Below are positions 7,858 through 52,799 of a DNA stretch of 64,000 nt, one piece after another. Location: IMG/VR virus record IMGVR_UViG_3300029118_000005; one strand, 5' to 3'. Every line of letters begins with the position of its first letter. Within the stretch, counting starts at the first letter, position 1. The notes under the pieces were generated by a model. That model worked only from the letters and a program-made list of their open reading frames with translations, ran no database searches and was not told the DNA's origin. Source of the stretch: a virus. The translations under genes were made by a program, and so were the position numbers.

Positions 7858-9348
7858 TTATACTTTCCCAGTTATAGGGCTTGTTTCCAACTGATCTATT
7901 TGTCTATCAGTTGGTTCACTGTCTTCCGTTGCTGTGGTTCCGCTTGATGCAGCAGCCCTTTGTACTGCTTCTATCATTTCCTTGCTGTCGTTCCATGTAG
8001 CCTCGGTGTCTTCAAAACCGTCAATAAATTTAAGTGCATGTCTGCCATGTACACCAGTCTTAATAAGGGTTGATAAAGCATTTGCTTTAACAGACATGTC
8101 ATAGTTCTTTCTTCTTGAGAAGTGGAAATTGATATCTCCAACATGTACTCTTTTGATTGGGTCATCGTCTTTAAGCACATTTGATGGAGTTAATTGGAGT
8201 ACTTTTATGATAAGTTTAAGCTCCTCTCTCTGTGCCTTGCTCACAATCTGTTCCTCGCGCACAGCGTCAATCTCAGCTGCACTCCATCCGCTAGACATAT
8301 CCATTGCTGTTCCTGTGGAACCACCGCCTTCTGAATCTTGTTGTGTAGGTACTTTACATTTTTGTAAAATTCTTCGCCAGCGTGTATCTATCGCTGTTAA
8401 TGTTGCGTTTGTATCGAATGCATTAGATAGTGCCTTGATTTGTGGTGTCTTTCCATCTGGTGTTGTGCTAGTAAGCACCCATTGCCCCGACTTCACTTCT
8501 ATAGGTTTTTTAGTTTTGGGGTCAACTGGGAAATCAACATCATTGCCCCACCATATCTCCTGAGTTTGCTGCGCTGTAAGGTTTGCAAAATCAGAGACTA
8601 GCGTGTTAAGTTCGATACAATCTGATATTTGTCTCTCAAAGCAGCCCGTTCTGTCAACGGATCTCTCGTATTCGACTATCGCTATTTTTTTGAGTGGATT
8701 TAATGATTTTTTAACAATTTTGCCTTTTGAGACTTCAAAGCGCATCTTAGGAGTAAAACACGTAAAATATTGTTCACCATTGTCCGTTCTGTATGTTACT
8801 CCCATTAGCTTCTTTTGTTTGGCATCATTGCTATATACACAAAAAGCATATCTTGGGTCTAGCGTATATATATCCACAAGTGCTTCGTCATCTTCTTCAA
8901 AATCGGTTTTAACGTCAACAAGTCGGTATCCTACACCTACTTTTTCAACAAAATTGCCAAGCTCCTGATTCTTGTAACCTATGTCGCAAGCATTTGTAAG
9001 CATTTCGTTAAGTGCAGATATTCCTTCGTCGTCTAAGTCTGCTGATGTTTTGTGAGCGTCTTTGTCAGATCTCTGTATCAGCATTGCTGGCGTTCCCCAA
9101 AAGTACGCCATTTTGAAATCAGTAATGTAGTTTGCGGCATTATCAGTTACTTTAATATTGATCTCAGGGCGAACAATTTTGGGTCTGTCCAGCGGTTGAT
9201 CGCCGGCTTCAAAATCTATAAGATATTGCATCTCTAACCGATTAAATTTATGCTTCTCATATGCTTTTGACAATTCTTTGATTATGTTGTCGGCAGTGAT
9301 TTCTTTTGCGTCCGTATATATCTTTTGACGTCCCTTTAGCATCCACAT
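7858..9348 (-). CDS. Portal protein (SPP1 gp6-like)
   Basis: 496 aa. Position upstream of the Mu-F-like gene and N-terminal similarity to SPP1-type portals. Confidence 0.85.
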   Translation of the reverse strand: MWMLKGRQKIYTDAKEITADNIIKELSKAYEKHKFNRLEMQYLIDFEAGDQPLDRPKIVRPEINIKVTDNAANYITDFKMAYFWGTPAMLIQRSDKDAHKTSADLDDEGISALNEMLTNACDIGYKNQELGNFVEKVGVGYRLVDVKTDFEEDDEALVDIYTLDPRYAFCVYSNDAKQKKLMGVTYRTDNGEQYFTCFTPKMRFEVSKGKIVKKSLNPLKKIAIVEYERSVDRTGCFERQISDCIELNTLVSDFANLTAQQTQEIWWGNDVDFPVDPKTKKPIEVKSGQWVLTSTTPDGKTPQIKALSNAFDTNATLTAIDTRWRRILQKCKVPTQQDSEGGGSTGTAMDMSSGWSAAEIDAVREEQIVSKAQREELKLIIKVLQLTPSNVLKDDDPIKRVHVGDINFHFSRRKNYDMSVKANALSTLIKTGVHGRHALKFIDGFEDTEATWNDSKEMIEAVQRAAASSGTTATEDSEPTDRQIDQLETSPITGKV

Positions 9349-20132: not shown

Positions 20133-20232
20133 CTGTTTTACCTCCTGTGCGATAATGTATTCCTGTGATTACAAATCAGTTGCCAGGCAGTCACAGGTTC
20201 TGCTTTTCGGGAGCTACCCTAGGCAACTGGAG

Positions 20233-20316
20233 CGCCGCGAGAAGGATTCGAACCCTCAGTCCTTTTACAGATCACTAGTTTTCAAAACTAGCCCAGTACC
20301 ATTGTGGCATCGCGGC
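20233..20316 (-). tRNA. tRNA-Ser (anticodon UGA)
   Basis: Reverse-strand cloverleaf. Acceptor is GCCGCGA/TCGCGGC. Anticodon stem CTAGT/ACTAG carries loop TTTGAAA. The variable arm is 17 nt and the T arm is GAGGG-TTCGAAT-CCTTC. No CCA is encoded. Confidence 0.8.
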
Positions 20317-20320
20317 AAGA

Positions 20321-20405
20321 CGCAATCGACAGGGGTTGAACCTGTAAGCCGAAGAAACGACCGACTCCTTAGCGGGGAGTTCCAATACCATTATGGGACG
20401 ATTGC
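20321..20405 (-). tRNA. tRNA-Ser (anticodon GCU), with C at position 33
   Basis: Acceptor is GCAATCG/CGATTGC. Anticodon stem ACTCC/GGAGT carries loop CCGCTAA. The variable arm is 18 nt and the T arm is ACAGG-TTCAACC-CCTGT. Confidence 0.7.
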
Positions 20406-20411
20406 AAAAAG

Positions 20412-21224
20412 TTAAATATTCCTCCATTCATCTTCCGAATATTCTTTTATTTCAGTTGACTTTTTAGGTAAATTGTATTTATCACACCATTTACGTATCG
20501 CATTGTCCGACACACCAAACATAATTCCGATCTGAGTAAATGGAACAGTCCTGATTAGTCTCTTTAACTCCTCACGGGTTATATTTCTTAATGGAGTGAT
20601 CGTTTTCTTTGGAGACTTTTTCTTCTTTTTCTTTTTTCTGTGATATTTTGAATAACAAAGATAGCAAAGATTGCTTTTATTGTTTTTTCTAATCGTTTTA
20701 CCACATTTTTTACATGTGTTTCTAGCTCTCTCTTTTATTCTTTCTTTTACTTTTTCTGAATTATATACTCCGAAGTTGTCTGTTAAACTATGACAATTAG
20801 GACATAGAATTTGCAAGTTTTCCAACGAATTGTTATCATGATTTCCATCAATATGATGTAATTGTAATTTAATCGGTTTTCCCATCCATTCGGAATTTCC
20901 ACACAATTCGCATCTTTTTTCTTTATACCCAAGTTCTATGAGCTTATTTTTAAGTTTGTGACTATTAACTTTTGTATTTGGCATCAACTTTGACTGAATG
21001 TCATAAACTTCCTTTCGATTTTGGTTGCATTTCAGTATATAATTGCGTTTATTTTCTTCAAATTTAGTGGTATCTAAATTGTATTCTTCTATGATTCTTT
21101 TTAGTGTTACAGTACTACTCGCACTTTTTATTCCTGCTAATTCCAATATTGATTTATATGTACTATGCGTGTCAATCAAGGATTGTAATTCTTCAGGAGT
21201 GAAATTATACAGCTTACTACTCAT
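20412..21224 (-). CDS. HNH homing endonuclease with C-terminal HTH
   Basis: CELCG...LHHIDGNHDNNSLENLQILCPNCH is the HNH motif. Inserted between the two tRNA groups. Confidence 0.8.
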   Translation of the reverse strand: MSSKLYNFTPEELQSLIDTHSTYKSILELAGIKSASSTVTLKRIIEEYNLDTTKFEENKRNYILKCNQNRKEVYDIQSKLMPNTKVNSHKLKNKLIELGYKEKRCELCGNSEWMGKPIKLQLHHIDGNHDNNSLENLQILCPNCHSLTDNFGVYNSEKVKERIKERARNTCKKCGKTIRKNNKSNLCYLCYSKYHRKKKKKKKSPKKTITPLRNITREELKRLIRTVPFTQIGIMFGVSDNAIRKWCDKYNLPKKSTEIKEYSEDEWRNI

Positions 21225-21281
21225 TTAGACTCCTTTTTATATCGTAAGAGAATTCTTATAAGAATTATCTGTTGCTAATAT

Positions 21282-21352
21282 TGCGGAGAGATGGACTTGA
21301 ACCATCAACTCTGGCGTATGAAGCCAGCAAGCTCCCTTTGCTCTATCCCGCA
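21282..21352 (-). tRNA. tRNA-Met-like (anticodon CAU), imperfect acceptor stem
   Basis: Anticodon stem CTGGC/GCCAG carries loop TTCATAC. T arm is GATGG-TTCAAGT-CCATC and D arm is GAGC-AAAGGGA-GCTT. The acceptor strands pair only partly in either register. Confidence 0.45.
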
Positions 21353-21353
21353 G

Positions 21354-21425
21354 TGAGTGATAGGAGACTCGAACTCCACAGTCTTAATTAAAGGTTAAGT
21401 GCTCTACCAGCTGAGCTAATGGCAC
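21354..21425 (-). tRNA. tRNA-Lys-like (anticodon UUU), poorly paired acceptor stem (possible pseudo-tRNA)
   Basis: D arm is GCTC-AGCTGGTA-GAGC. Anticodon stem CTTAA/TTAAG carries loop CCTTTAA, and the T loop is TTCGAGT. Acceptor GTGCCAT versus ATCACTC pairs at about 4 of 7 positions. Confidence 0.4.
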
Positions 21426-21427
21426 AA

Positions 21428-21498
21428 CAGGGCTAGTTGGACTCGAACCAACAGTGCAGGAATCAAAATCCTGTGCCTTACCATTTGGCGATAACCCC
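21428..21498 (-). tRNA. tRNA-Gln (anticodon UUG)
   Basis: Acceptor is GGGGTTA/TAGCCCT (two G-U pairs). D arm is GCC-AAATGGTAA-GGC. Anticodon stem CAGGA/TCCTG carries loop TTTTGAT. T arm is GTTGG-TTCGAGT-CCAAC. Confidence 0.8.
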
Positions 21499-21513
21499 AG
21501 CGTGATCTTATCC

Positions 21514-28664: not shown

Positions 28665-28997
28665 ATGTTATATTCAGAGTTAGCAAAAACTTACAGAAAG
28701 CTTTTTAAGAAATATCCAAATATTTCTAGTCTCCAGGATTTCGGCGGCAAGATTTTAGAAGAAAAAACAACCTATGCTAAGCGCGGCGCGCGTTGGGTTG
28801 AAGTGAAAAAAGAAGAAAAAGAAGTACCGGCAACTTATGTTTTTAATGTATTTGATGCAGTACAATTTTTTAAAGGCTTAGGCGGATACGAAAAAGTAAG
28901 TTGTGGCTATACAAAGGCCGGATATCTTCCAGACGAGTTACTAAGTATCAGCCCTAACAGAACGGAAAAAACAGTAAGAAAATATTATTTCATTTAA
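28665..28997 (+). CDS. Hypothetical protein
   Basis: 110-aa ORF. About 100 nt of structured leader (hairpin GCCGGTTGC...GCAACCGGC at 28571-28608). AAGGGA RBS. Confidence 0.45.
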   Translation: MLYSELAKTYRKLFKKYPNISSLQDFGGKILEEKTTYAKRGARWVEVKKEEKEVPATYVFNVFDAVQFFKGLGGYEKVSCGYTKAGYLPDELLSISPNRTEKTVRKYYFI

Positions 28998-29023
28998 AAA
29001 AATAAGGTGGGCGAAAATGCCCA
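28986..29023. terminator. Bidirectional terminator between convergent genes
   Basis: AAAAAA..GGTGGGC-GAAAAT-GCCCACC-TTTTTTT. Confidence 0.8.
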
Positions 29024-29030
29024 CCTTTTT

Positions 29031-29426
29031 TTATTTGCTTCGTGCCTGATCAAGTAGCCGCTGCGTCTGCTTCTGGCCGTATATATCCATGATATCAAGC
29101 TGATACCGTGCATCAGTCAAGAGCCTTTGCAGGTCTACCGCTTCCAGGTCTGGCGTATGGTTCTTAGTCTTCTGACTGGACGGCTCCGGACCTGCCGCAG
29201 GTGCTGCAGGTCCTTCTGCATCTGGTGCCGCTGATCGGATGCTATCGCGGTCTATAGCTGCATCGGCTGCATCTGTCAAAAACTGCGCTAGGCTTTGCCC
29301 TCTGGCGGCTGCTGCGTCTAAATACTTTTGCTTGCATCCTTTTTTCACGCGAATATTTATCTGCTCAAGATGTTCTTTTTGATACTTCATGATCGCGTTT
29401 TTCTGTGCCTCTGAATACTTGCCCAT
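29031..29426 (-). CDS. Ribbon-helix-helix (CopG/Arc-like) regulator
   Basis: The N-terminus EQINIRVKKGCKQKYLDAAAARGQSLAQFLTDAADAAI is a typical RHH pattern. Divergent from the operator-rich promoter region. Confidence 0.55.
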   Translation of the reverse strand: MGKYSEAQKNAIMKYQKEHLEQINIRVKKGCKQKYLDAAAARGQSLAQFLTDAADAAIDRDSIRSAAPDAEGPAAPAAGPEPSSQKTKNHTPDLEAVDLQRLLTDARYQLDIMDIYGQKQTQRLLDQARSK

Positions 29427-29490
29427 TTTACACCTCCTATAAATAATGGCCCTATTCCACCACTAGCATAGTTATAGCATAGAAATATAG

Positions 29491-29576
29491 TGCTAGCTAT
29501 AGATAAAATAAACAAAAATTCTATAGCTAGCTTGTGAAATATCACAGTTGACTATAGCTAGCTATAGAAGTATAAT
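29491..29576 (+). promoter_or_regulatory. Promoter (TTGACT, 17 nt, TATAAT) with three TATAGCTAGC-type palindromic operators
   Basis: Operator copies lie at 29491-29502, 29521-29531 and 29554-29567; the last is inside the spacer. The -35 is at 29548-29553 and the -10 at 29571-29576. Confidence 0.65.
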
Positions 29577-29625
29577 ACAGTCAGAAACAAGGAAAACAAC
29601 AAACACAGAAAGGAAGTAAAAAAAT

Positions 29626-29928
29626 ATGAAGAGAACAAAAAATATGATTTATAAGGCATCCGATGAAGCAAGAGAGCTGTTTTTATATGCTACTAACTCA
29701 GGCGTTTTGTATGATCGCCAGATTAAGCCGAGTATCGAAAACCTCAGAAAAAAAGCAAGAAAGGGGACCTTTGATAAAGACAAGGCGGCAGACCTCTTTT
29801 ACTATGTAGCCACAAGCGCTTCGGCCATGTATAATAGAGATTTTGGATTTAGCTTTTCTGTCCAGCAGCGCTTTACAGCCGCGGTTGATATGGTTGATTT
29901 TTACATTGATGAAATAGAAGAGATTTAA
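29626..29928 (+). CDS. Hypothetical protein
   Basis: 100-aa ORF with AAAGGAAG RBS. Confidence 0.45.
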   Translation: MKRTKNMIYKASDEARELFLYATNSGVLYDRQIKPSIENLRKKARKGTFDKDKAADLFYYVATSASAMYNRDFGFSFSVQQRFTAAVDMVDFYIDEIEEI

Positions 29929-30006
29929 GCCGAAACGCCCAAGGCTGGGCGTCCGTTGGGGATTGCCTCCCAGCGCTGATGATGGCAGGCAAGAAAGGGA
30001 AAAGTT

Positions 30007-30369
30007 ATGACAACATTACACATTATTAAGTTAAGTGAGAACGCCCCAGCTATGGCGCACGGTTTCCACTATAACGTCCAGATCTGGACGAAGGACAGCG
30101 GCCGTGGCTGGTGCTATGCCGGAAATGGTAAGTTTTTAAAGGCTGCAGATGAGGTTCTGAGATATGGCAAGGAACACGCCGAGTTTTACAGTGATGACAT
30201 GTACAAGGATTTTTACGCCTGTATGAGTGAGGAAGACGTTGTATATTTTGTAGGGGTTTACAAGTGGCACGCCTTCCGCGTATATCCAGACGGAAAAATT
30301 ACAAAGGCAACTGAGCAAGAACGCGAATTGGCCGGAAAATGGCTTGAAAGAGAGAAAGGAAAGCGATGA
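30007..30369 (+). CDS. Hypothetical protein
   Basis: 120-aa ORF. Its N-terminal half is paralogous to the next small ORF. Confidence 0.45.
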   Translation: MTTLHIIKLSENAPAMAHGFHYNVQIWTKDSGRGWCYAGNGKFLKAADEVLRYGKEHAEFYSDDMYKDFYACMSEEDVVYFVGVYKWHAFRVYPDGKITKATEQERELAGKWLEREKGKR

Positions 30370-30524
30370 TCACAACAAAAATTGTCTTGCTGGGCGACAC
30401 TCACCCGGCAAGACTTCGCGGTTATGGTTACAGTGTGCAGATTTTTGTAGATGGTGAATACAGTAATATTTGCAAGCTGTGCCGGACTCTGGCAGATGCT
30501 GAAAGCTACGCTAAGGAATTTTAA
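30366..30524 (+). CDS. Small protein (52 aa), paralog of the N-terminus of 30007..30369
   Basis: ATGA start/stop overlap. Sequence is MITTKIVLLGDTHPARLRGYGYSVQIFVDG...AESYAKEF. Below the ORF-track cutoff. Confidence 0.4.
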   Translation: MITTKIVLLGDTHPARLRGYGYSVQIFVDGEYSNICKLCRTLADAESYAKEF

Positions 30525-30628
30525 GTTTTTTTGTGTTTCTCCGCTTTAGGCGGCGAGGTTCACGACCTGGGGACACTTTACCGGGGAAAACCGGAACAAA
30601 AAAGAAAACTAAAAGAAAGGTTAAAACA

Positions 30629-31024
30629 ATGATTTTACAGACAGTATCTATCAGCGCCGCGCCGCGAGAGCTGCATATAAAGCTTTTCAAGGCTCACGGC
30701 GAGGAGTGGGAAAAGCTGGTGAAAGAAATTGCAAGCCTTGACGCTGTGGCTCTTGCGTCATGGGCGCGAGTATTCGAGGCGGTAAAGACTCCAGGTGTGG
30801 TGGCACACTGGGAAGTGCAGCACGAAATTGGCGACAAGGCATACACAGAGCAACGTATACTGCACGTATCCGTAAAGAATCCGGGCTGCATTCAGTTTTC
30901 TACAGCTCACATCTACCCAGACGAATATATCCCGGTGATGGATTCACAGTTTAAAAATGCAGCTGATTTTTTCAGATATGAAGCGCCGCCATCAGCAGTT
31001 GTTATTGTTGAAAAGGTTGCGTGA
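30629..31024 (+). CDS. Hypothetical protein
   Basis: Likely start is ATG 30629 (MILQTVSIS). Confidence 0.4.
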   Translation: MILQTVSISAAPRELHIKLFKAHGEEWEKLVKEIASLDAVALASWARVFEAVKTPGVVAHWEVQHEIGDKAYTEQRILHVSVKNPGCIQFSTAHIYPDEYIPVMDSQFKNAADFFRYEAPPSAVVIVEKVA

Positions 31025-31043
31025 AACGGAAAGAGGTGATAAG

Positions 31044-31316
31044 ATGAAGGTAATCTGGGAACCAGGTCTGCAGATCAAGAAGATGTGCAGCAGTGCAGAG
31101 CATGCTATTGTTGCGGTTAACGTCCGGCAGTATATTGATTTTCTAGGTGGAAAATGGAGAAACCATTTTGTTACAAAGCGGCAACTGTTTGCAGAAAAAG
31201 AGTTGTCAACGAATAACGGAAATTTTAAGACATTTGCTAGCAATGGACGCTTAGAGCTTTTTAATGCGGTAACAGATGGGGTTGAAAAAGCCAAGAACTT
31301 TTTGTATAATATTTGA
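31044..31316 (+). CDS. Hypothetical protein
   Basis: Likely start is ATG 31044 (MKVIWEPG) with AAAGAGGTG RBS. Confidence 0.4.
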   Translation: MKVIWEPGLQIKKMCSSAEHAIVAVNVRQYIDFLGGKWRNHFVTKRQLFAEKELSTNNGNFKTFASNGRLELFNAVTDGVEKAKNFLYNI

Positions 31317-31377
31317 AACACACATATGTACTGTTATTTTGCAATAGTGCATATTGACAAAGAAAGGAAGGGCAAAC

Positions 31378-32283
31378 ATGAATTGGGAAAATTTGCTGAA
31401 AGTGTATGAAAATATGGGTGTTGAGGATATTATCCCAATAGCCCATACAAGAATTTTACCACATATAAAGGTATTGCTCGATGAAAATGGAAATTACATA
31501 GGGGCGATGTTAAACGGTAAAGACCGTTTTACTATTCCGTGCACCATTGAATCTGAATCAAGAACAAGCGGAAACAATCCACATCCGATTCATGACAATA
31601 TGCAATATTTGTCGGCAGACTATAACAAAGAAAAACACGATAAATATATGGAACAATTAGAAGCCTACATTTCTAAAGTAGATGACAAATTGGCAAAATC
31701 AGTATACAGATTTGTTCAAAAAGGATTGATGAGGGATGTTTTACAAGGATTTCTAAAAAAGATTCCTTATCCAGAAGAAAAAACTGTGGTTTGTTTTGTG
31801 ATGGCTCCGCAGGAAGAATTGATAAGAGCAAGTTTTAGTGGGGAATATGAAAAATATTGCCTAAATCTTCTTCGATCAGGAGACGGGCAAAACAAGCAAT
31901 GGAAAGACTATTATCTTAGCAGTTTGGAACCAAATGGAATGTGTAGCATTACAGGAAATAACGATTTTATTCCTGCAACTTATCCGAAGGGTATTAGATT
32001 TGCAGGTGATGGAGCAAAACTTTTTATTGCGTCATCTCGTAATATTATGTTGGAAGGAATGCCGGCCCTTGCACCTGGTTACATAGCGTCGCAAAAAATA
32101 CTGCATACGCTTCAATGCCTATGCTTTGAGGGACCACAATGGGCAAATCAAGTAATGCGTGACAATTTAAAATCTGTTAAAGAAATTGATTTAACAGCAG
32201 ATGAAGAGAAAGTAGTGGAAAGGTATATAAAAAACATACTTAAAGAAAGTAAGACGTGTCAAATAACTCCTGACTGTAAATAA
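31378..32283 (+). CDS. cas8c: Cas8c/Csd1-like protein, N-terminal ~300 aa only (truncated type I-C Cascade large-subunit homolog)
   Basis: Likely start is ATG 31378. Four segments are collinear with Firmicute Csd1 as I recall it: NWENLLKVYEN, IIPIAHT, TIPCTIESESRTSGNNPHPIHDNMQYLSADY, and CSITGN..P..YPKGIRFAGDGAKL...GYIASQKILHTLQCL. The protein ends about 300 aa short of canonical length. Confidence 0.55.
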   Translation: MNWENLLKVYENMGVEDIIPIAHTRILPHIKVLLDENGNYIGAMLNGKDRFTIPCTIESESRTSGNNPHPIHDNMQYLSADYNKEKHDKYMEQLEAYISKVDDKLAKSVYRFVQKGLMRDVLQGFLKKIPYPEEKTVVCFVMAPQEELIRASFSGEYEKYCLNLLRSGDGQNKQWKDYYLSSLEPNGMCSITGNNDFIPATYPKGIRFAGDGAKLFIASSRNIMLEGMPALAPGYIASQKILHTLQCLCFEGPQWANQVMRDNLKSVKEIDLTADEEKVVERYIKNILKESKTCQITPDCK

Positions 32284-32388
32284 AGGCTGGAGAATGTAAG
32301 AATTACTAATTAAAAAGACCGAAACGGATGTGAAAATGGCACTGGAAGTGATTCGAAAGCAGAAAATTGAGAGAGGGGGTGAAGATGA

Positions 32389-33297
32389 ATGACTGGTAAA
32401 TATAATATTCAGATAGGCGATGTATTTGGGCAATGGGAAGTAATAGGGCAAGGCAGCAAGCCCTATTACTCAAAGTGTAGATGTACTTGCGGTACGATTA
32501 GAGATGTAAGCAACAGATCTCTTTGCGCTGGTGATTCTAAATCTTGTGGATGCAATAAGGAATACTTAAAAGCCAGACGAAAAGAATCTTCTGTTAAGAC
32601 TGGTGATCGTTTCGGAATGTGGAAGGTGATTGGTGAATCAAGTAGACCGTATTCAGTTCTATGCAAATGTGACTGTGGGACAGTTAGAAACGTATATAGT
32701 CGTATGCTATTAGCAGGTAAATCTAAATCTTGTGGGTGCAATAAGGAGCATGTAAAAACTACCTCTAAAAAAATATCCGAAACCAACTTGAGAATTGCAC
32801 AGAAAAAAGTCGGAACTAGTATCAATGGATTTAAAATTGTAAGTATTTTTAAGAAAAAGGGGGAGAATGTTTTTTATTGCAAAGCTATATGCCCAGTTTG
32901 CGGAAAAGAAACAGAAACCCAGTTGTCCAGATTGAAAAAAAATTATATGTGTGTAAATTGTAACCGTAATAATGGGGACTTTTTGAAAGAAATACAGAAA
33001 AGCTGCTATGTGGATGGTTCTTGCTTGCCAAGCATTAGATCAAGAGAAAATGGAACTGTCAACAAAAATTCTAGTACAAAAGTAAACGGGGTTTCGCTTC
33101 AAAAAGACGGAAGCTATAGAGCATATATAACATTTAGACATAAACAATATCATTTGGGAGTATATGCTAGTCTGGAAGAGGCAGCATCGGCACGCAAAGA
33201 GGCTGAAAAAAAGCTCTTTGGTGAATACATAAAGAGTCATCAGGGATGGGAAGATGAGCTAAAAGAAATCGGAAAGAGACATAGAAAAAAACCATAA
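32389..33297 (+). CDS. AP2-domain DNA-binding protein with repeated zinc-ribbon modules
   Basis: The module W.VIG....Y...C.CGT.R.V....L..G.SKSCGCNKE occurs twice. The C-terminus GVSLQKDGSYRAYITFRHKQYHLGVYASLEEAASAR is an AP2 pattern. Confidence 0.6.
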   Translation: MTGKYNIQIGDVFGQWEVIGQGSKPYYSKCRCTCGTIRDVSNRSLCAGDSKSCGCNKEYLKARRKESSVKTGDRFGMWKVIGESSRPYSVLCKCDCGTVRNVYSRMLLAGKSKSCGCNKEHVKTTSKKISETNLRIAQKKVGTSINGFKIVSIFKKKGENVFYCKAICPVCGKETETQLSRLKKNYMCVNCNRNNGDFLKEIQKSCYVDGSCLPSIRSRENGTVNKNSSTKVNGVSLQKDGSYRAYITFRHKQYHLGVYASLEEAASARKEAEKKLFGEYIKSHQGWEDELKEIGKRHRKKP

Positions 33298-33304
33298 TAA
33301 AAAG

Positions 33305-33337
33305 TAGGGATAGAATCAAATCTATCCCTATTATTTT
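33305..33337 (+). terminator. Rho-independent terminator of the plus-strand island
   Basis: TAGGGATAG-AATCAAAT-CTATCCCTA followed by TTATTTT. Confidence 0.75.
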
Positions 33338-33408
33338 ACAGTTCTTGACAGTATTTTACATTACTTTACATTATTATACATTATTTTACATTAAAATAAT
33401 GTCAAAAT
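33331..33408. repeat. Junction motif copy A: six 10-bp-phased TTTACA-type repeats ending in the palindrome ACATTAAAATAATGT
   Basis: ttattttaca|gttcttgaca|gtattttaca|ttactttaca|ttattataca|ttattttaca|ttaaaataatgtcaaaat. Confidence 0.8.
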
Positions 33409-38113: not shown

Positions 38114-39673
38114 TTACTCACCTTCCTCCTTCGGTTTAAGATCTGCCTTGTAAGAGCTTAAATGTTCTTCTATAGTTTCAAGACTATTGGATTCCTCTGG
38201 AATCAATCGGTTGAGATAATATAAAAAAGAATTATAAGCCTTTGCTGTGCAATAATACTTTTCCTTGCCATTCACCGTAACTATTCGACCTCTAAATGAT
38301 GTCGGGGATGCATTATCAATTAAAGATTTAGAAAAGTCCAGTGCAGACTGCTTGACCATTCTTAGAAAATATTCAAATGCGGTGGCGCTTGATGAAAGAA
38401 ATCTGGACCAAATCAAATCTAGGTTACTAGAAAACTCATATTTTTTAAGTTCAGTCGGATTCTGCTTGCCACTAGCCATCTGAATATTGTAGGATAATAC
38501 ACCAATTTCATTTGTAATATAACGGCATAGTTCAATGGCAACAGATATGTAATCTGCAAAGTTAGGATCGAGATTCGCTGTAAATCTTTTTGAACATTCA
38601 TCGACAAACTTCATTGCCTTAGAGTCATACATCATTCCACAAGTTTGAAAGCCTGCGTTGCTAATTCCGATTAAGCGCAACCATGTAACAGTGTCTTGAT
38701 TGCTGTAAAGTATCTTGTCGAGTAGTTGCCACAATGGAACATCGTTAAATAAGCGAAGTGGTTTAGCACTGTTACTATTTAAAATGTAAAGTGCCATGGT
38801 TTCAGCTACAACACGTTCTTTATCAAAAAACTCCCCACCCAATGCATTAAATCCGGTTATGACCCCATTTTCACGCTTGAGAAATATCCTGCGCGATTGG
38901 TGCGTGAATAATTCCGCTGGGTTAGAAGGTGGATCAATCTTTTTGCGCTCATCGGATCGTGGCGAGCATTCCCATATTGGGCAAGGCTTAGGCCACAATT
39001 CTCCATTACCATTCTGTAAAGGAACTAGGTTCATCATAAGTGTTTCAAAAAGATTTCGCCCGATTGCGTAAACAATAGTATTTTGCCCCAACCATCCAAT
39101 ACTGATTGAAGGCAAGCCTGTCCTACTTGGCTTTACAGAAACATCGTCATACCCGTTGATAAAAAGAAGCCATCTAGCCGCTTCTGCATATGTTAGTTGC
39201 ATTTTTGCTTCTCCACTTCTTGCTGCAAAAATTCGTACCTTGTTGTTGCTTTCAGAAATTTCTCCGTTTAACTTTGCAGCACCAAAAGCAGTTCCTTTTT
39301 TAGCTTCGTTTGCCTGATAGAATGGAGCATCAGGATGAAAAAGCCAGAAACGTTCTCTGTATTCTTCTAAATATTTTAAAAACGTTTCTGGAAAATGACC
39401 GAGACTCCAATAACTTTTCCAACGGCTGATTGCTTCATCCCTGTTTGAAAGTGGAATTTCATCACCGTTTGAGTCGAATCTTGCGAATCCAGAATGAGCA
39501 ATTGCAAGAAGTAGCCGTATCATTGCGACATTTTGAGTATCTGTTTCACCTGCCAAATCCATGTATTCATGACTGCGGGCGAAAACTTCTTTAAGTGAAA
39601 CTTCTTTAATAGTATAATTTGGAAGCAATACACGCACCCAGTTTTCATCAAGCAAATTAAATTCTTTCTTCAT
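38114..39673 (-). CDS. cas8e: Cas8e/Cse1 (CasA)-like protein, full length, orphan
   Basis: Six segments are collinear with E. coli and T. thermophilus CasA as I recall them: FNLLDENWVRV, VAMIRLLLAIAH, GHFPETFLKYLEEYRERFWLFHPDAPFYQ, LTYAEAARWLLF, GRNLFETLMMNLVP and CPIWE. 519 aa. Confidence 0.75.
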   Translation of the reverse strand: MKKEFNLLDENWVRVLLPNYTIKEVSLKEVFARSHEYMDLAGETDTQNVAMIRLLLAIAHSGFARFDSNGDEIPLSNRDEAISRWKSYWSLGHFPETFLKYLEEYRERFWLFHPDAPFYQANEAKKGTAFGAAKLNGEISESNNKVRIFAARSGEAKMQLTYAEAARWLLFINGYDDVSVKPSRTGLPSISIGWLGQNTIVYAIGRNLFETLMMNLVPLQNGNGELWPKPCPIWECSPRSDERKKIDPPSNPAELFTHQSRRIFLKRENGVITGFNALGGEFFDKERVVAETMALYILNSNSAKPLRLFNDVPLWQLLDKILYSNQDTVTWLRLIGISNAGFQTCGMMYDSKAMKFVDECSKRFTANLDPNFADYISVAIELCRYITNEIGVLSYNIQMASGKQNPTELKKYEFSSNLDLIWSRFLSSSATAFEYFLRMVKQSALDFSKSLIDNASPTSFRGRIVTVNGKEKYYCTAKAYNSFLYYLNRLIPEESNSLETIEEHLSSYKADLKPKEEGE

Positions 39674-51278: not shown

Positions 51279-52799
51279 TTATGCGAATTTAAGCTGTCCA
51301 GTTTCTTCTTCTCTAACCTTCATATTTGGCATTCTCTGCCGCAAACACATCTCTGGAAGATTTGCTCTTACTAGTGCTGCAGGAATTGGTGGACACACCG
51401 CATTTCCACACCTTTTAACTTGCTCTGACCGAGGATATGATTTGCCAGAGTAATCGTGGTCAATGATATAATCATCGGGGAATCCCTGACATCCATATAA
51501 CTCACGCGGTTCTAACATGCGAAGTCCTATGTCTACGATTTGGTAATCTACGCCTTTGATTGTAACAAGCCCAAATCTATCATGTGTTGTTACGGTGTCT
51601 AGGGGCTGTTTAATATTCTGACCATCATTGCTGCCATAATATTTAATCAGGAAAGCTCTGACTTCCCCAAAATGGCCAGCTGACGTTGCTACAGTATGTA
51701 ATGGCTCTCGCTCATCCTGCCCGATACCGGTCTTATAGAATTTGCTCAAGAAAGATGTTACAAGTCCGTATCTGTTTGAGCTATCTACAGTCATTATTGG
51801 TTCGCTGATGCCCTGTCCGCGAATACTGTCATTTTCATATGAATGATACTGGGTTAGGATCGGAGCTACTAGGAAATTCTTGTCTTTTGCAACGATAGTA
51901 TGCAAAGGCTTTTCTACACTGTATGCTCTTGGGCTTTTTTGATTTTTAGATTCGCCATATCCGATTTCAACAATGAATGGATCAGCATTATCAACAACAA
52001 ATTTCTGAATGCCTCGCGCAATCCGTTGCATTGTTTTTGGAGCTAATGGTCTGACTGCACGAACACCATACTTCTTTTTAATCTCTTCCGATGTGTTAAA
52101 AATGCTTGGACATGGAATTGAAAAGTCTAATTGTGTGTATGCCCCTACATATGGCTTTAAAATACCCTTTTTAACCGCTTCACTATCTAATGGAGCATGT
52201 GTAGGCTCAGGCCATAATATTGGCTTATTATCGCATCTGGCAATTAAGAAGAATCTTTTACGCATTGTAGGCGCACCGTAATCAGCTGCGACTAGTTCGC
52301 GAAACTCTACAGTATATCCTAAATCTGTAAGTTGCTTGATAAAACGTTTGAACGTTTCTCCTGACCTTGATTTTATAGGGTGATGCCGTCTATTAAGCGG
52401 TCCCCATGTTTTAAATTCCTCGACATTCTCAAGCATTATCACTCTAGGTCTAACTAGTCCAGCCCACCTGCAAGCCACCCAAGCAAGGCCACGGATGAAT
52501 TTATCCTTCGGCTTTCCGCCTTTAGCCTTGCTAAAATGCTTGCAATCTGGCGAAAACCATGCAAGCCCGACTGGGTGCCCACCACAAGCCTTTACTGGAT
52601 CTACCTGCCAAACGTCCTCACAATAATGTTTTGTAGTTGGATGGTTAGTTCGATGCATTCTGATAGCTTCTGGATCATGGTTGATTGCAATATCAACACT
52701 TACCCCTGTTGCCATCTCTATTCCTGTTGAAGCTCCGCCACCACCTGCAAAGTTGTCTACCACTAATTCACCGTTTATCATAATCTCTCCTGCTAACAT
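51279..52799 (-). CDS. DNA (cytosine-5) methyltransferase (orphan, long variable region)
   Basis: Motif I is DNFAGGGGAS, motif IV is SPDCKHFSKAKGG, motif VI is MLENVEEF, and the C-terminus carries CGNAVCPP. 506 aa. Confidence 0.85.
   Translation of the reverse strand: MLAGEIMINGELVVDNFAGGGGASTGIEMATGVSVDIAINHDPEAIRMHRTNHPTTKHYCEDVWQVDPVKACGGHPVGLAWFSPDCKHFSKAKGGKPKDKFIRGLAWVACRWAGLVRPRVIMLENVEEFKTWGPLNRRHHPIKSRSGETFKRFIKQLTDLGYTVEFRELVAADYGAPTMRKRFFLIARCDNKPILWPEPTHAPLDSEAVKKGILKPYVGAYTQLDFSIPCPSIFNTSEEIKKKYGVRAVRPLAPKTMQRIARGIQKFVVDNADPFIVEIGYGESKNQKSPRAYSVEKPLHTIVAKDKNFLVAPILTQYHSYENDSIRGQGISEPIMTVDSSNRYGLVTSFLSKFYKTGIGQDEREPLHTVATSAGHFGEVRAFLIKYYGSNDGQNIKQPLDTVTTHDRFGLVTIKGVDYQIVDIGLRMLEPRELYGCQGFPDDYIIDHDYSGKSYPRSEQVKRCGNAVCPPIPAALVRANLPEMCLRQRMPNMKVREEETGQLKFA

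Follow-up and report, generated by a model that had tools for sequence, protein, structure and literature searches.

A phage-borne homolog of the Cas8c N-terminal domain as a candidate type I-C anti-CRISPR in Clostridial gut phages

Why would a phage carry only the first half of the large subunit of a CRISPR-Cas effector complex? The question is raised by a gene at 31378–32283 (+; stop codon included) in a 64,000-nt stretch of viral DNA, IMG/VR record IMGVR_UViG_3300029118_000005 (the whole stretch is referred to here as the window). Its 301-aa product is homologous to the N-terminal domain (NTD) of Cas8c/Csd1, the large subunit of type I-C Cascade. The window represents a phage genome, with genes for a major head protein, a portal, a large terminase, replication initiators and a C5 DNA methyltransferase, and its close IMG/VR relatives include contigs of 85–90 kb. 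We propose the protein as a candidate anti-CRISPR (Acr) against type I-C systems. The gene is defined by the list of open reading frames (ORFs), by Pfam, NCBIfam and PADLOC matches, by an AlphaFold2 model searched with Foldseek, and by the ratio of nonsynonymous to synonymous substitution rates (dN/dS).

The ORF is intact over 301 codons and lies where an earlier note on this DNA had placed it. A Shine-Dalgarno-like sequence read off the DNA, GAAAGGAAGGG (31362–31372, +), ends 5 nt before the ATG at 31378, and a consensus scan found a promoter-like TTGAAA-17-TATAAT upstream (31282–31310, +), a pattern match only, with 11 of 12 positions agreeing. The note had taken the product for a Cas8c/Csd1-like protein and called for a profile search; Pfam, PADLOC and Foldseek all agree with that identity. 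The Pfam family Cas_Csd1 (PF09709) matches with E = 1.3e-18 and 67.5 bits (gathering score, 27), aligning residues 6–215 of the protein with profile positions 1–213 of 559. Three PADLOC models of Cas8c match the stretch covered by PF09709 (best E = 7e-29). The full-length equivalog model TIGR01863 scores only 36 bits (cut-off, 218.65), in keeping with the half length of the protein. PHROGs has no family for the 301-aa protein.

Structural comparison gives the same answer. An AlphaFold2 model built with 31 family members has a mean predicted local distance difference test score (pLDDT) of 75 and a predicted template modelling score (pTM) of 0.71. When this model was searched against the PDB with Foldseek, the five matches with E ≤ 0.001 were all Cas8c, from Neisseria lactamica (8GAF, 8G9U, 8G9T) and Desulfovibrio vulgaris (8DFS, 8DEJ), with query-normalised template modelling scores of ~0.4–0.5; every other match had E > 1. 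The viral structure library BFVD held no match. A single-sequence search of the PDB gave nothing useful and a profile of the short family gave only a marginal match; a profile including full-length Cas8c was needed to align the PDB chains (8g9t_K, 8dej_I).

Four motif blocks that the earlier note had named as those of Cas8c/Csd1 are all present, in order, and align column for column with full-length Clostridial Cas8c. They are W3..LL..YEN, IPIAHT (residues 19–24), TIPCTIESESRTSGNNPHPIHDNMQYLSADY (residues 52–82), and the pair CSITGNNDFIPATYPKGIRFAGDGAKL (residues 189–215) and GYIASQKILHTLQCL (residues 234–248). Overall, the first ~250 of the 301 residues are homologous to the NTD of Cas8c/Csd1.

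Where does the homology end? The domains of N. lactamica Cas8 are the NTD (1–259), wedge (260–348), adaptor (349–457) and C-terminal domain (458–582), and the Cas3-recruit loop, A276–P297, lies within the wedge (Hu et al., bioRxiv 10.1101/2023.08.05.552134). As a check of register, our residue count places A276 at the start of the recruit loop, as in Hu et al. The last conserved helix of the phage protein, PGYIASQKILHTLQ (residues 233–246), aligns with N. lactamica residues 242–259, and the homology stops at the NTD/wedge boundary, the equivalent of residue 259. The NTD-homologous part, delimited by alignment to full-length Cas8c, by profile alignment to the PDB chains and by the domain limits of Hu et al., comprises residues 1–252 (31378–32133, +). 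The protein has neither the wedge and its Cas3-recruit loop nor the adaptor nor the Cas11-like C-terminal domain. The break that was to be mapped thus falls at a domain boundary, and the shortfall of about 300 aa that had been estimated is borne out by cellular relatives of ~580–685 aa. Judged from these alignments, the phage protein is an entire Cas8c NTD and no other part of Cas8c. A family-specific helical tail follows (residues 253–301; 32134–32280, +), as seen in alignments and in the AlphaFold2 model; its ~50 residues differ between clades and are not homologous to the Cas8c wedge by alignment, and its modelled helices (235–263 and 274–290) have pLDDT of ~41–69.

In Cas8c, the NTD reads the protospacer-adjacent motif (PAM) and is one of the domains that contact Cas3. 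Two loops of the phage protein correspond to the DNA-reading surface. The ESESRTSG loop, residues 58–65 (31549–31572, +), aligns with the PAM-interacting loop of Cas8c, that is, with S70-G71-S72 of N. lactamica and the N72 glycine loop of D. vulgaris; S59, E60, R62 and T63 are invariant across the family. The loop GIRFAGDGAKLF, residues 205–216 (31990–32025, +), aligns with the Q212 wedge region of D. vulgaris Cas8c, in a register that is uncertain in its exact position; D211 and L215 are invariant, and I206, R207, K214 and F216 nearly so. Both include residues of low model confidence (pLDDT < 50 at residues 61–64 and 205–224). Invariance, or near-invariance, combined with low pLDDT is the pattern expected of functional loops that become ordered only upon ligand binding. 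That the PAM-loop and wedge-loop motifs are invariant suggests a part for the DNA-reading surface in the mechanism, beyond any role as a scaffold.

The same loops differ from those of cellular Cas8c: the family has SESRT where cellular proteins have S-x-x-R-[TS] (middle residue G or A), and a shorter segment stands in place of the lost ISAND...FTYRGRF block, which is conserved in cellular Cas8c. Invariance within the family combined with departure from the cellular form could mean that the phage NTD makes host Cascade read another PAM, or bind without cutting, and so silences genes of the host or of rival phages. We regard such a hijack as very improbable, as the window, apart from its Cas8e homolog, yielded no CRISPR array, solitary repeat or further cas gene, and no sign of a phage-supplied guide.

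A simpler alternative is that the gene is a decaying, functionless fragment of a captured cas8c gene, as its half length and lack of cas neighbours might suggest. The earlier note had pointed to relics of the C-terminal half as a sign of such decay. We searched the 64-kb window by tblastn with ten full-length Cas8c proteins and their C-terminal halves, and recovered only the NTD, at 31378–32160; the best match otherwise had E = 0.15, and no relic was detected downstream or elsewhere in the window. Relative to homologs at 77–99% amino-acid identity, dN/dS is 0.03–0.18, and the stop codon lies at a common position in 26 of 27 close relatives, while a single copy carries a frameshift. Purifying selection acts on the gene. 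Furthermore, the truncation lies at the domain boundary in all clades of an old and monophyletic group, and the gene is preceded by a promoter-like site and a ribosome-binding site of its own. We therefore reject decay, which the conservation data and the missing C-terminal relic make extremely improbable.

Truncated homologs recur in many phages and prophages, which settles a further check that the note had asked for. A word-indexed search gave 45 homolog clusters, nearly all of 243–333 aa, the exceptions being a few fragments, one read-through fusion and one fusion to a helix-turn-helix (HTH) domain. A HMMER scan of 1.84 billion representatives yielded 1264 relatives. Here ~40 short-form clusters (at 50% identity), mostly of 235–308 aa, scored 130–423 bits, whereas full-length Cas8c proteins (~580–685 aa) reached at most ~130 bits and aligned over their first ~280–300 residues; every full-length Cas8c scored below the ~40 short clusters. 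In a neighbour-joining tree, approximate in that a few distances are undefined, 39 short forms were monophyletic relative to 93 cellular NTDs in 30 of 30 column resamplings, and their sister sequence, P0081, sits within a cas5d-cas8c operon. The closest cellular Cas8c proteins, from Bariatricus and Anaerostipes, are 32% identical (best among 78 Clostridial loci). From the score gap, the tree, the identities and the conservation data, we infer that the family has a single, ancient origin in a type I-C large subunit and has been kept since as a short protein.

What do the relatives reveal about function? All of their observed contexts are phage or prophage; relatives occur near the terminase or at prophage ends, and 79 loci in IMG/VR have one. 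In human gut metagenomes the family is abundant: a single relative appears in 343 indexed blocks of the sequence collection. In a clade that is ~60% identical to the window protein, the gene lies at the prophage end, after the lysis genes and beside host rho, and a 61-aa HTH_3 gene overlaps its stop codon, which is the classical acr-aca layout. The IMG/VR members of this clade have been assigned to Fusicatenibacter as host (Katz et al. Table S3, bioRxiv 10.1101/2023.06.24.545427). The 61-aa HTH_3 protein also occurs fused to the Cas8c-NTD protein, N-terminally in P0022 and C-terminally in P0050. In a sister sub-clade (loci L039 and L043–L055), a gene for a 65-aa homolog of AcrIC5 lies 13–18 nt upstream of the Cas8c-NTD gene (PF22147, E = 1.9e-9, 37.9 bits against a gathering score of 27; for example, 1602–1799 of L045). 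These are gut viral contigs, some of them host-assigned to Fusicatenibacter. In ~50-kb phages with a 46%-identical copy, the same loci carry homologs of the anti-Thoeris proteins Tad4 and Tad2.

Exchange at the locus adds to this picture. The slot just upstream of the gene holds differing genes among phages that are 95–99% identical to the window. In L009–L011, the flanks are 90–99% identical, the Cas8c-NTD allele is only 82% identical, and an acidic partner protein has been brought along; this swap is a cassette exchange of the kind typical of arms-race loci. On the cellular side, type I-C loci with arrays made up 58 of 80 loci sampled in Clostridia. The 1462 spacers of these 58 arrays include one near-perfect match to a phage with a relative of the gene, and none to the window: a spacer of an uncultured Lachnospiraceae bacterium (L128, 10312) matches 8794–8826 of phage L056 at 32 of 33 positions. 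L056 is a different phage from that of the window and carries a 79%-identical Cas8c-NTD, and this is a single observation. The 5ʹ flank of the protospacer is TTT rather than TTC, and may be an escape variant.

We consider it moderately probable that the protein is a Cas8c-derived anti-CRISPR of type I-C systems, captured by an ancestor of Clostridial gut phages and kept for counter-defence. This interpretation rests on the association with AcrIC5 and aca-like genes in relatives and on the precedent of AcrIB3, AcrIB4 and AcrVIA2. We propose that the free NTD, expressed during infection, would compete with the NTD of host Cas8c for its partners, namely the Cas5/Cas7 foot of Cascade, the PAM duplex and possibly the helicase anchor loop of Cas3. 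In N. lactamica, productive recruitment of Cas3 needs both the NTD, which contacts the helicase and takes up its anchor loop, and the wedge, whose recruit loop contacts the HD nuclease, and the required NTD/wedge geometry is reached only at the full R-loop (Hu et al., bioRxiv 10.1101/2023.08.05.552134). At complexes or targets occupied by the phage protein, a hand-shake that needs NTD and wedge in one chain would fail, Cas3 would not be productively recruited, and phage DNA would escape degradation.

Several observations weigh against this interpretation. The earlier note had read the gene as counter-defence; that view gains from the AcrIC5 homolog and from the aca-like HTH genes beside or fused to relatives. 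No known acr gene was found in the window's own island of small genes; the acr/aca-type neighbours are those of relatives. The small proteins of the island match no family and no known Acr in Pfam, PHROGs or PADLOC. The island has no AcrIC5 homolog, no acidic partner and no adjacent MqsA-type HTH gene; all that occurs of this sort, at its start, is an HTH_26 gene and a ribbon-helix-helix-like gene. A tblastn search of GenBank phages gave no match for the Cas8c-NTD protein and a DNA search of the same phages gave only short, unannotated fecal phage contigs; a family-profile scan of GTDB species genomes found no relative, and the plasmid collection gave no match. The GenBank phage, GTDB and plasmid searches gave neither a cultured host for the window's phage nor a link to a host type I-C system. 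The Cas8c NTD of apo type I-C Cascade is either mobile or not resolved, and it can be displaced by AcrIC8. A free NTD may thus bind Cascade only weakly, which weakens the picture of a "defective subunit", and stable incorporation as such a subunit is not assured. Furthermore, a Cas homolog can inhibit a CRISPR type other than that of its source, as AcrVIA2 does (Katz et al., bioRxiv 10.1101/2023.06.24.545427). Finally, an AcrIC5-like protein and a Cas8c NTD in one operon would be an odd combination if the two acted independently.

The mobility of the NTD also bears on an alternative mechanism, in which the free NTD stays outside Cascade, binds the helicase anchor loop of Cas3 through its conserved groove and sequesters Cas3. 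The NTD sits only loosely in apo Cascade, which makes action in trans more likely for a free copy. The helicase of N. lactamica Cas3 contacts the Cas8 NTD, with F437 of the anchor loop entering a conserved hydrophobic pocket, and AcrIF3 offers a precedent in that it captures Cas2/3 by mimicking part of Cas8f. However, a trap for Cas3 leaves the strict conservation of the PAM-loop motifs unexplained, and we consider it quite unlikely.

A recurrent neighbour raises a different possibility. An acidic protein (113–140 aa, isoelectric point ~4.1–4.4) adjoins the gene in 55 of 96 loci, usually directly upstream (for example, 7530–7952 of L009, 7605–7988 of L001 and 832–1173 of L087, in addition to 52 other loci). 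These loci span clades at 37–82% identity to the window protein; the window's own clade has no acidic partner. The partner has the motifs IGDxCRNS..W, ELPGTCG and YGxDExEIII. It matches no family in Pfam, PHROGs or PADLOC and has no names in a set of 5.8 billion proteins; one of five AlphaFold2 runs reached pLDDT 84, the others 56–63, with no fold match in the PDB. In two deeply diverged clades, a gene for a basic protein of ~210 aa with several CxxC zinc ribbons overlaps the end of the Cas8c-NTD gene or starts within a few nt downstream (8824–9459 of L001, 2075–2722 of L087). Acidic partner, Cas8c-NTD and zinc-ribbon genes then form a module of three genes, with a DUF4417 gene and the terminase downstream.

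Could such a module have taken the NTD out of type I-C inhibition altogether, as a DNA-binding or regulatory module, or as an inhibitor of another defence, working with the acidic partner and sometimes with the zinc-ribbon protein? The spread of the acidic partner across clades, the zinc-ribbon gene that follows in two deep clades and the presence of a DUF4417 gene nearby in several lineages are all consistent with exaptation of this kind, and AcrVIA2 shows that homology need not predict the target. However, the window's clade has neither the acidic partner nor the zinc-ribbon protein and its gene is still under purifying selection, the partner has no recognisable fold or family, and the AcrIC5 homolog and aca-like HTH genes point specifically to type I-C and to acr loci. 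We consider exaptation unlikely.

The acidic proteins may instead be part of the inhibitor. AcrIC5 is predicted to bind the PAM site of Cas8c (EVADES preprint), and because of this prediction and the operon link, acidic partners may bind the phage NTD itself. A bolder form of our proposal is that the protein, rather than a passive decoy, is a working PAM-reading module that inhibits type I-C systems in a way unlike any known Acr. It would either dock on PAM-flanked DNA or the Cascade foot or, in most clades, form a two-part inhibitor with the closely linked acidic partner; together with a Cas8e homolog elsewhere in the window, it would point to a phage strategy of mimics against several type I subtypes at once. 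In the docking version, the phage NTD would replace the mobile host NTD, NTD and wedge would be split between two chains, and licensing of Cas3 would fail. We put this form forward tentatively, as possible rather than probable.

That Cas8e homolog is a solo, full-length Cas8e/Cse1 protein of 519 aa (38114–39673, −; PF09481, E = 7.7e-70; PADLOC Cas8e, E = 5e-68), 39–43% identical to cellular Cse1 of type I-E systems. It is the only other cas-like gene found in the window, and almost every close relative whose retrieved locus extends that far has it, at 92–97% identity. The claim that one phage carries look-alikes of the large subunits of two type I subtypes is therefore upheld. The neighbours of the Cas8e homolog belong to no Pfam family.

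The Cas8c-NTD gene is part of a plus-strand accessory island (28665–33297, +), along with small genes with no known function, a hammerhead ribozyme and a mobile AP2/zinc-ribbon gene. The island is embedded in genes that are mostly on the minus strand and starts at a divergent region beside the HTH_26 gene. The small genes upstream (52–131 aa) had been described as plus-strand genes; this stands except for the 131-aa gene at 29031–29426, the ribbon-helix-helix-like gene, which is on the minus strand. Of ten more ORFs near the island and the Cas8e gene, none had a Pfam match. The gene at 32389–33297 (+) starts 105 nt downstream of the Cas8c-NTD gene and is unrelated to Cas8c; it encodes a 302-aa protein with repeated zinc-ribbon modules and an AP2-like domain, associated with homing endonucleases (PHROG 374 and 99, both "HNH endonuclease"). 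Among relatives that are 96–98% identical, it is missing in L016, L021, L026 and L030. Because it is absent from some close relatives, we regard it as independently mobile and not functionally tied to the Cas8c-NTD gene.

The gene had been said to have no cas neighbours, and this is what we find: its neighbours are unrelated small genes and the AP2/zinc-ribbon gene, and there is no array. None of the ten largest ORFs of the window has a cas match. The window holds no array-like repeats and no CRISPR family of Rfam, and a type I-C repeat-end pattern is no commoner in it than expected by chance. One site with a single mismatch to the type I-C repeat end was considered as a solitary repeat or RNA anti-CRISPR and rejected, as it lies within coding sequence and has no stem.

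Other features of the window are noted here. A type II hammerhead ribozyme (Rfam RF02276; 29928–29994, +) scores 52.4 bits against a gathering score of 37 and exactly fills the gap between the island genes at 29626–29928 and 30007–30369; its minimum free energy does not surpass that of shuffled sequence (z = -0.45), which is common among small ribozymes. Beside the minus-strand gene at 29031–29426, two CTATAGCTAGCT-like copies (29521–29573) flank a promoter-like TTGACT-17-TATAAT (29548–29576), and this arrangement could serve the island as an operator. Between the AP2/zinc-ribbon gene and a DUF4417 gene, TTTACA-containing repeats at a spacing of ~10 nt (33330–33389) could be iteron- or operator-like, or merely overlapping promoter-like hexamers. 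Five tRNA genes (Ser-TGA, Ser-GCT, Met, Lys and Gln; 20162–21499, −) directly adjoin a match to the Rfam int-alpA RNA (50 bits). The C5 DNA cytosine methyltransferase is an orphan (51279–52799, −; PHROG 116, E = 5e-101; PADLOC MTase_II); it likely has an anti-restriction function, and it shows that the phage invests in counter-defence.

If our interpretation is correct, this would be the first anti-CRISPR made from the PAM-reading NTD of a Cascade large subunit, complementing AcrIB4 and AcrIB3, and it would give direct evidence on the origin of Acr proteins from cas genes in phages of gut Clostridia, where type I-C systems are common. Such a protein could serve as a compact off-switch for genome editing with type I-C systems. 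The pairing of the family with acidic partners, AcrIC5 homologs and HTH regulators makes a set of constructs readily available. The presence of a Cas8e homolog in the same genome suggests that mimicry of the large subunit may be a general tactic.

How does the protein compare with known systems? With cellular Cas8c (PF09709, TIGR01863; 8DEJ, 8G9T, 8G9U), it shares the NTD fold, the order of the motifs and the PAM-reading loops. Unlike Cas8c, it has no wedge, adaptor or C-terminal domain and no internal Cas11c reading frame, and its gene lies outside any cas operon and has no array, whereas the cellular relatives are found in operons with arrays. On the basis of architecture and operon context, the protein counts as a homolog of the Cas8c NTD and not as a functional Cas8c.

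Closer parallels are found among orphan viral cas genes. Katz et al. searched IMG/VR for such genes and listed 358, with 24 table entries for cas8c (Nature 2024; bioRxiv 10.1101/2023.06.24.545427). Six of our loci (L045, L053, L054, L073, L083 and L087) are uncultivated viral genomes listed as orphan cas8c in their Table S3, so that the family is already catalogued; the predicted hosts of these relatives are Lachnospiraceae (Fusicatenibacter, Blautia_A and Enterocloster; Katz et al. Table S3). That table was checked for six contigs from the clade of the window, and none is listed. Among the inhibitors that Katz et al. describe, AcrIB3 is homologous to Cas5 and takes its place in Cascade, AcrIB4 is homologous to the C-terminal domain of Cas8b, and AcrVIA2 to Cas3 (bioRxiv 10.1101/2023.06.24.545427); a 2026 review lists no other Acr proteins as Cas homologs. 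Like them, the window protein is a solo, phage-borne homolog of a Cascade subunit, encoded apart from cas operons and arrays. It likewise belongs to a clade of its own, apart from true Cas proteins, at ~30% identity compared with 38% for AcrIB3 and AcrIB4, with acr-type loci seen here in relatives. Unlike AcrIB4, it retains the PAM-reading NTD rather than the Cas11-like C-terminal domain, and its subtype is I-C, not I-B.

Two Acr proteins of other origin are also informative. AcrIF3, in line with the role proposed here, is a phage protein that imitates part of a large subunit and disturbs nuclease recruitment; it differs in having no detectable sequence homology to Cas8f, whereas the homology of the window protein is evident from sequence, and in mimicking another domain, the Cas8f helical bundle. 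AcrIC5 (PF22147; León et al. 2021, PMC7913775) shares with the window protein the presumed target, type I-C, but is small, acidic, unrelated in sequence and predicted to block the PAM site of Cas8c. The window protein fits the class of Cas-derived Acr candidates.

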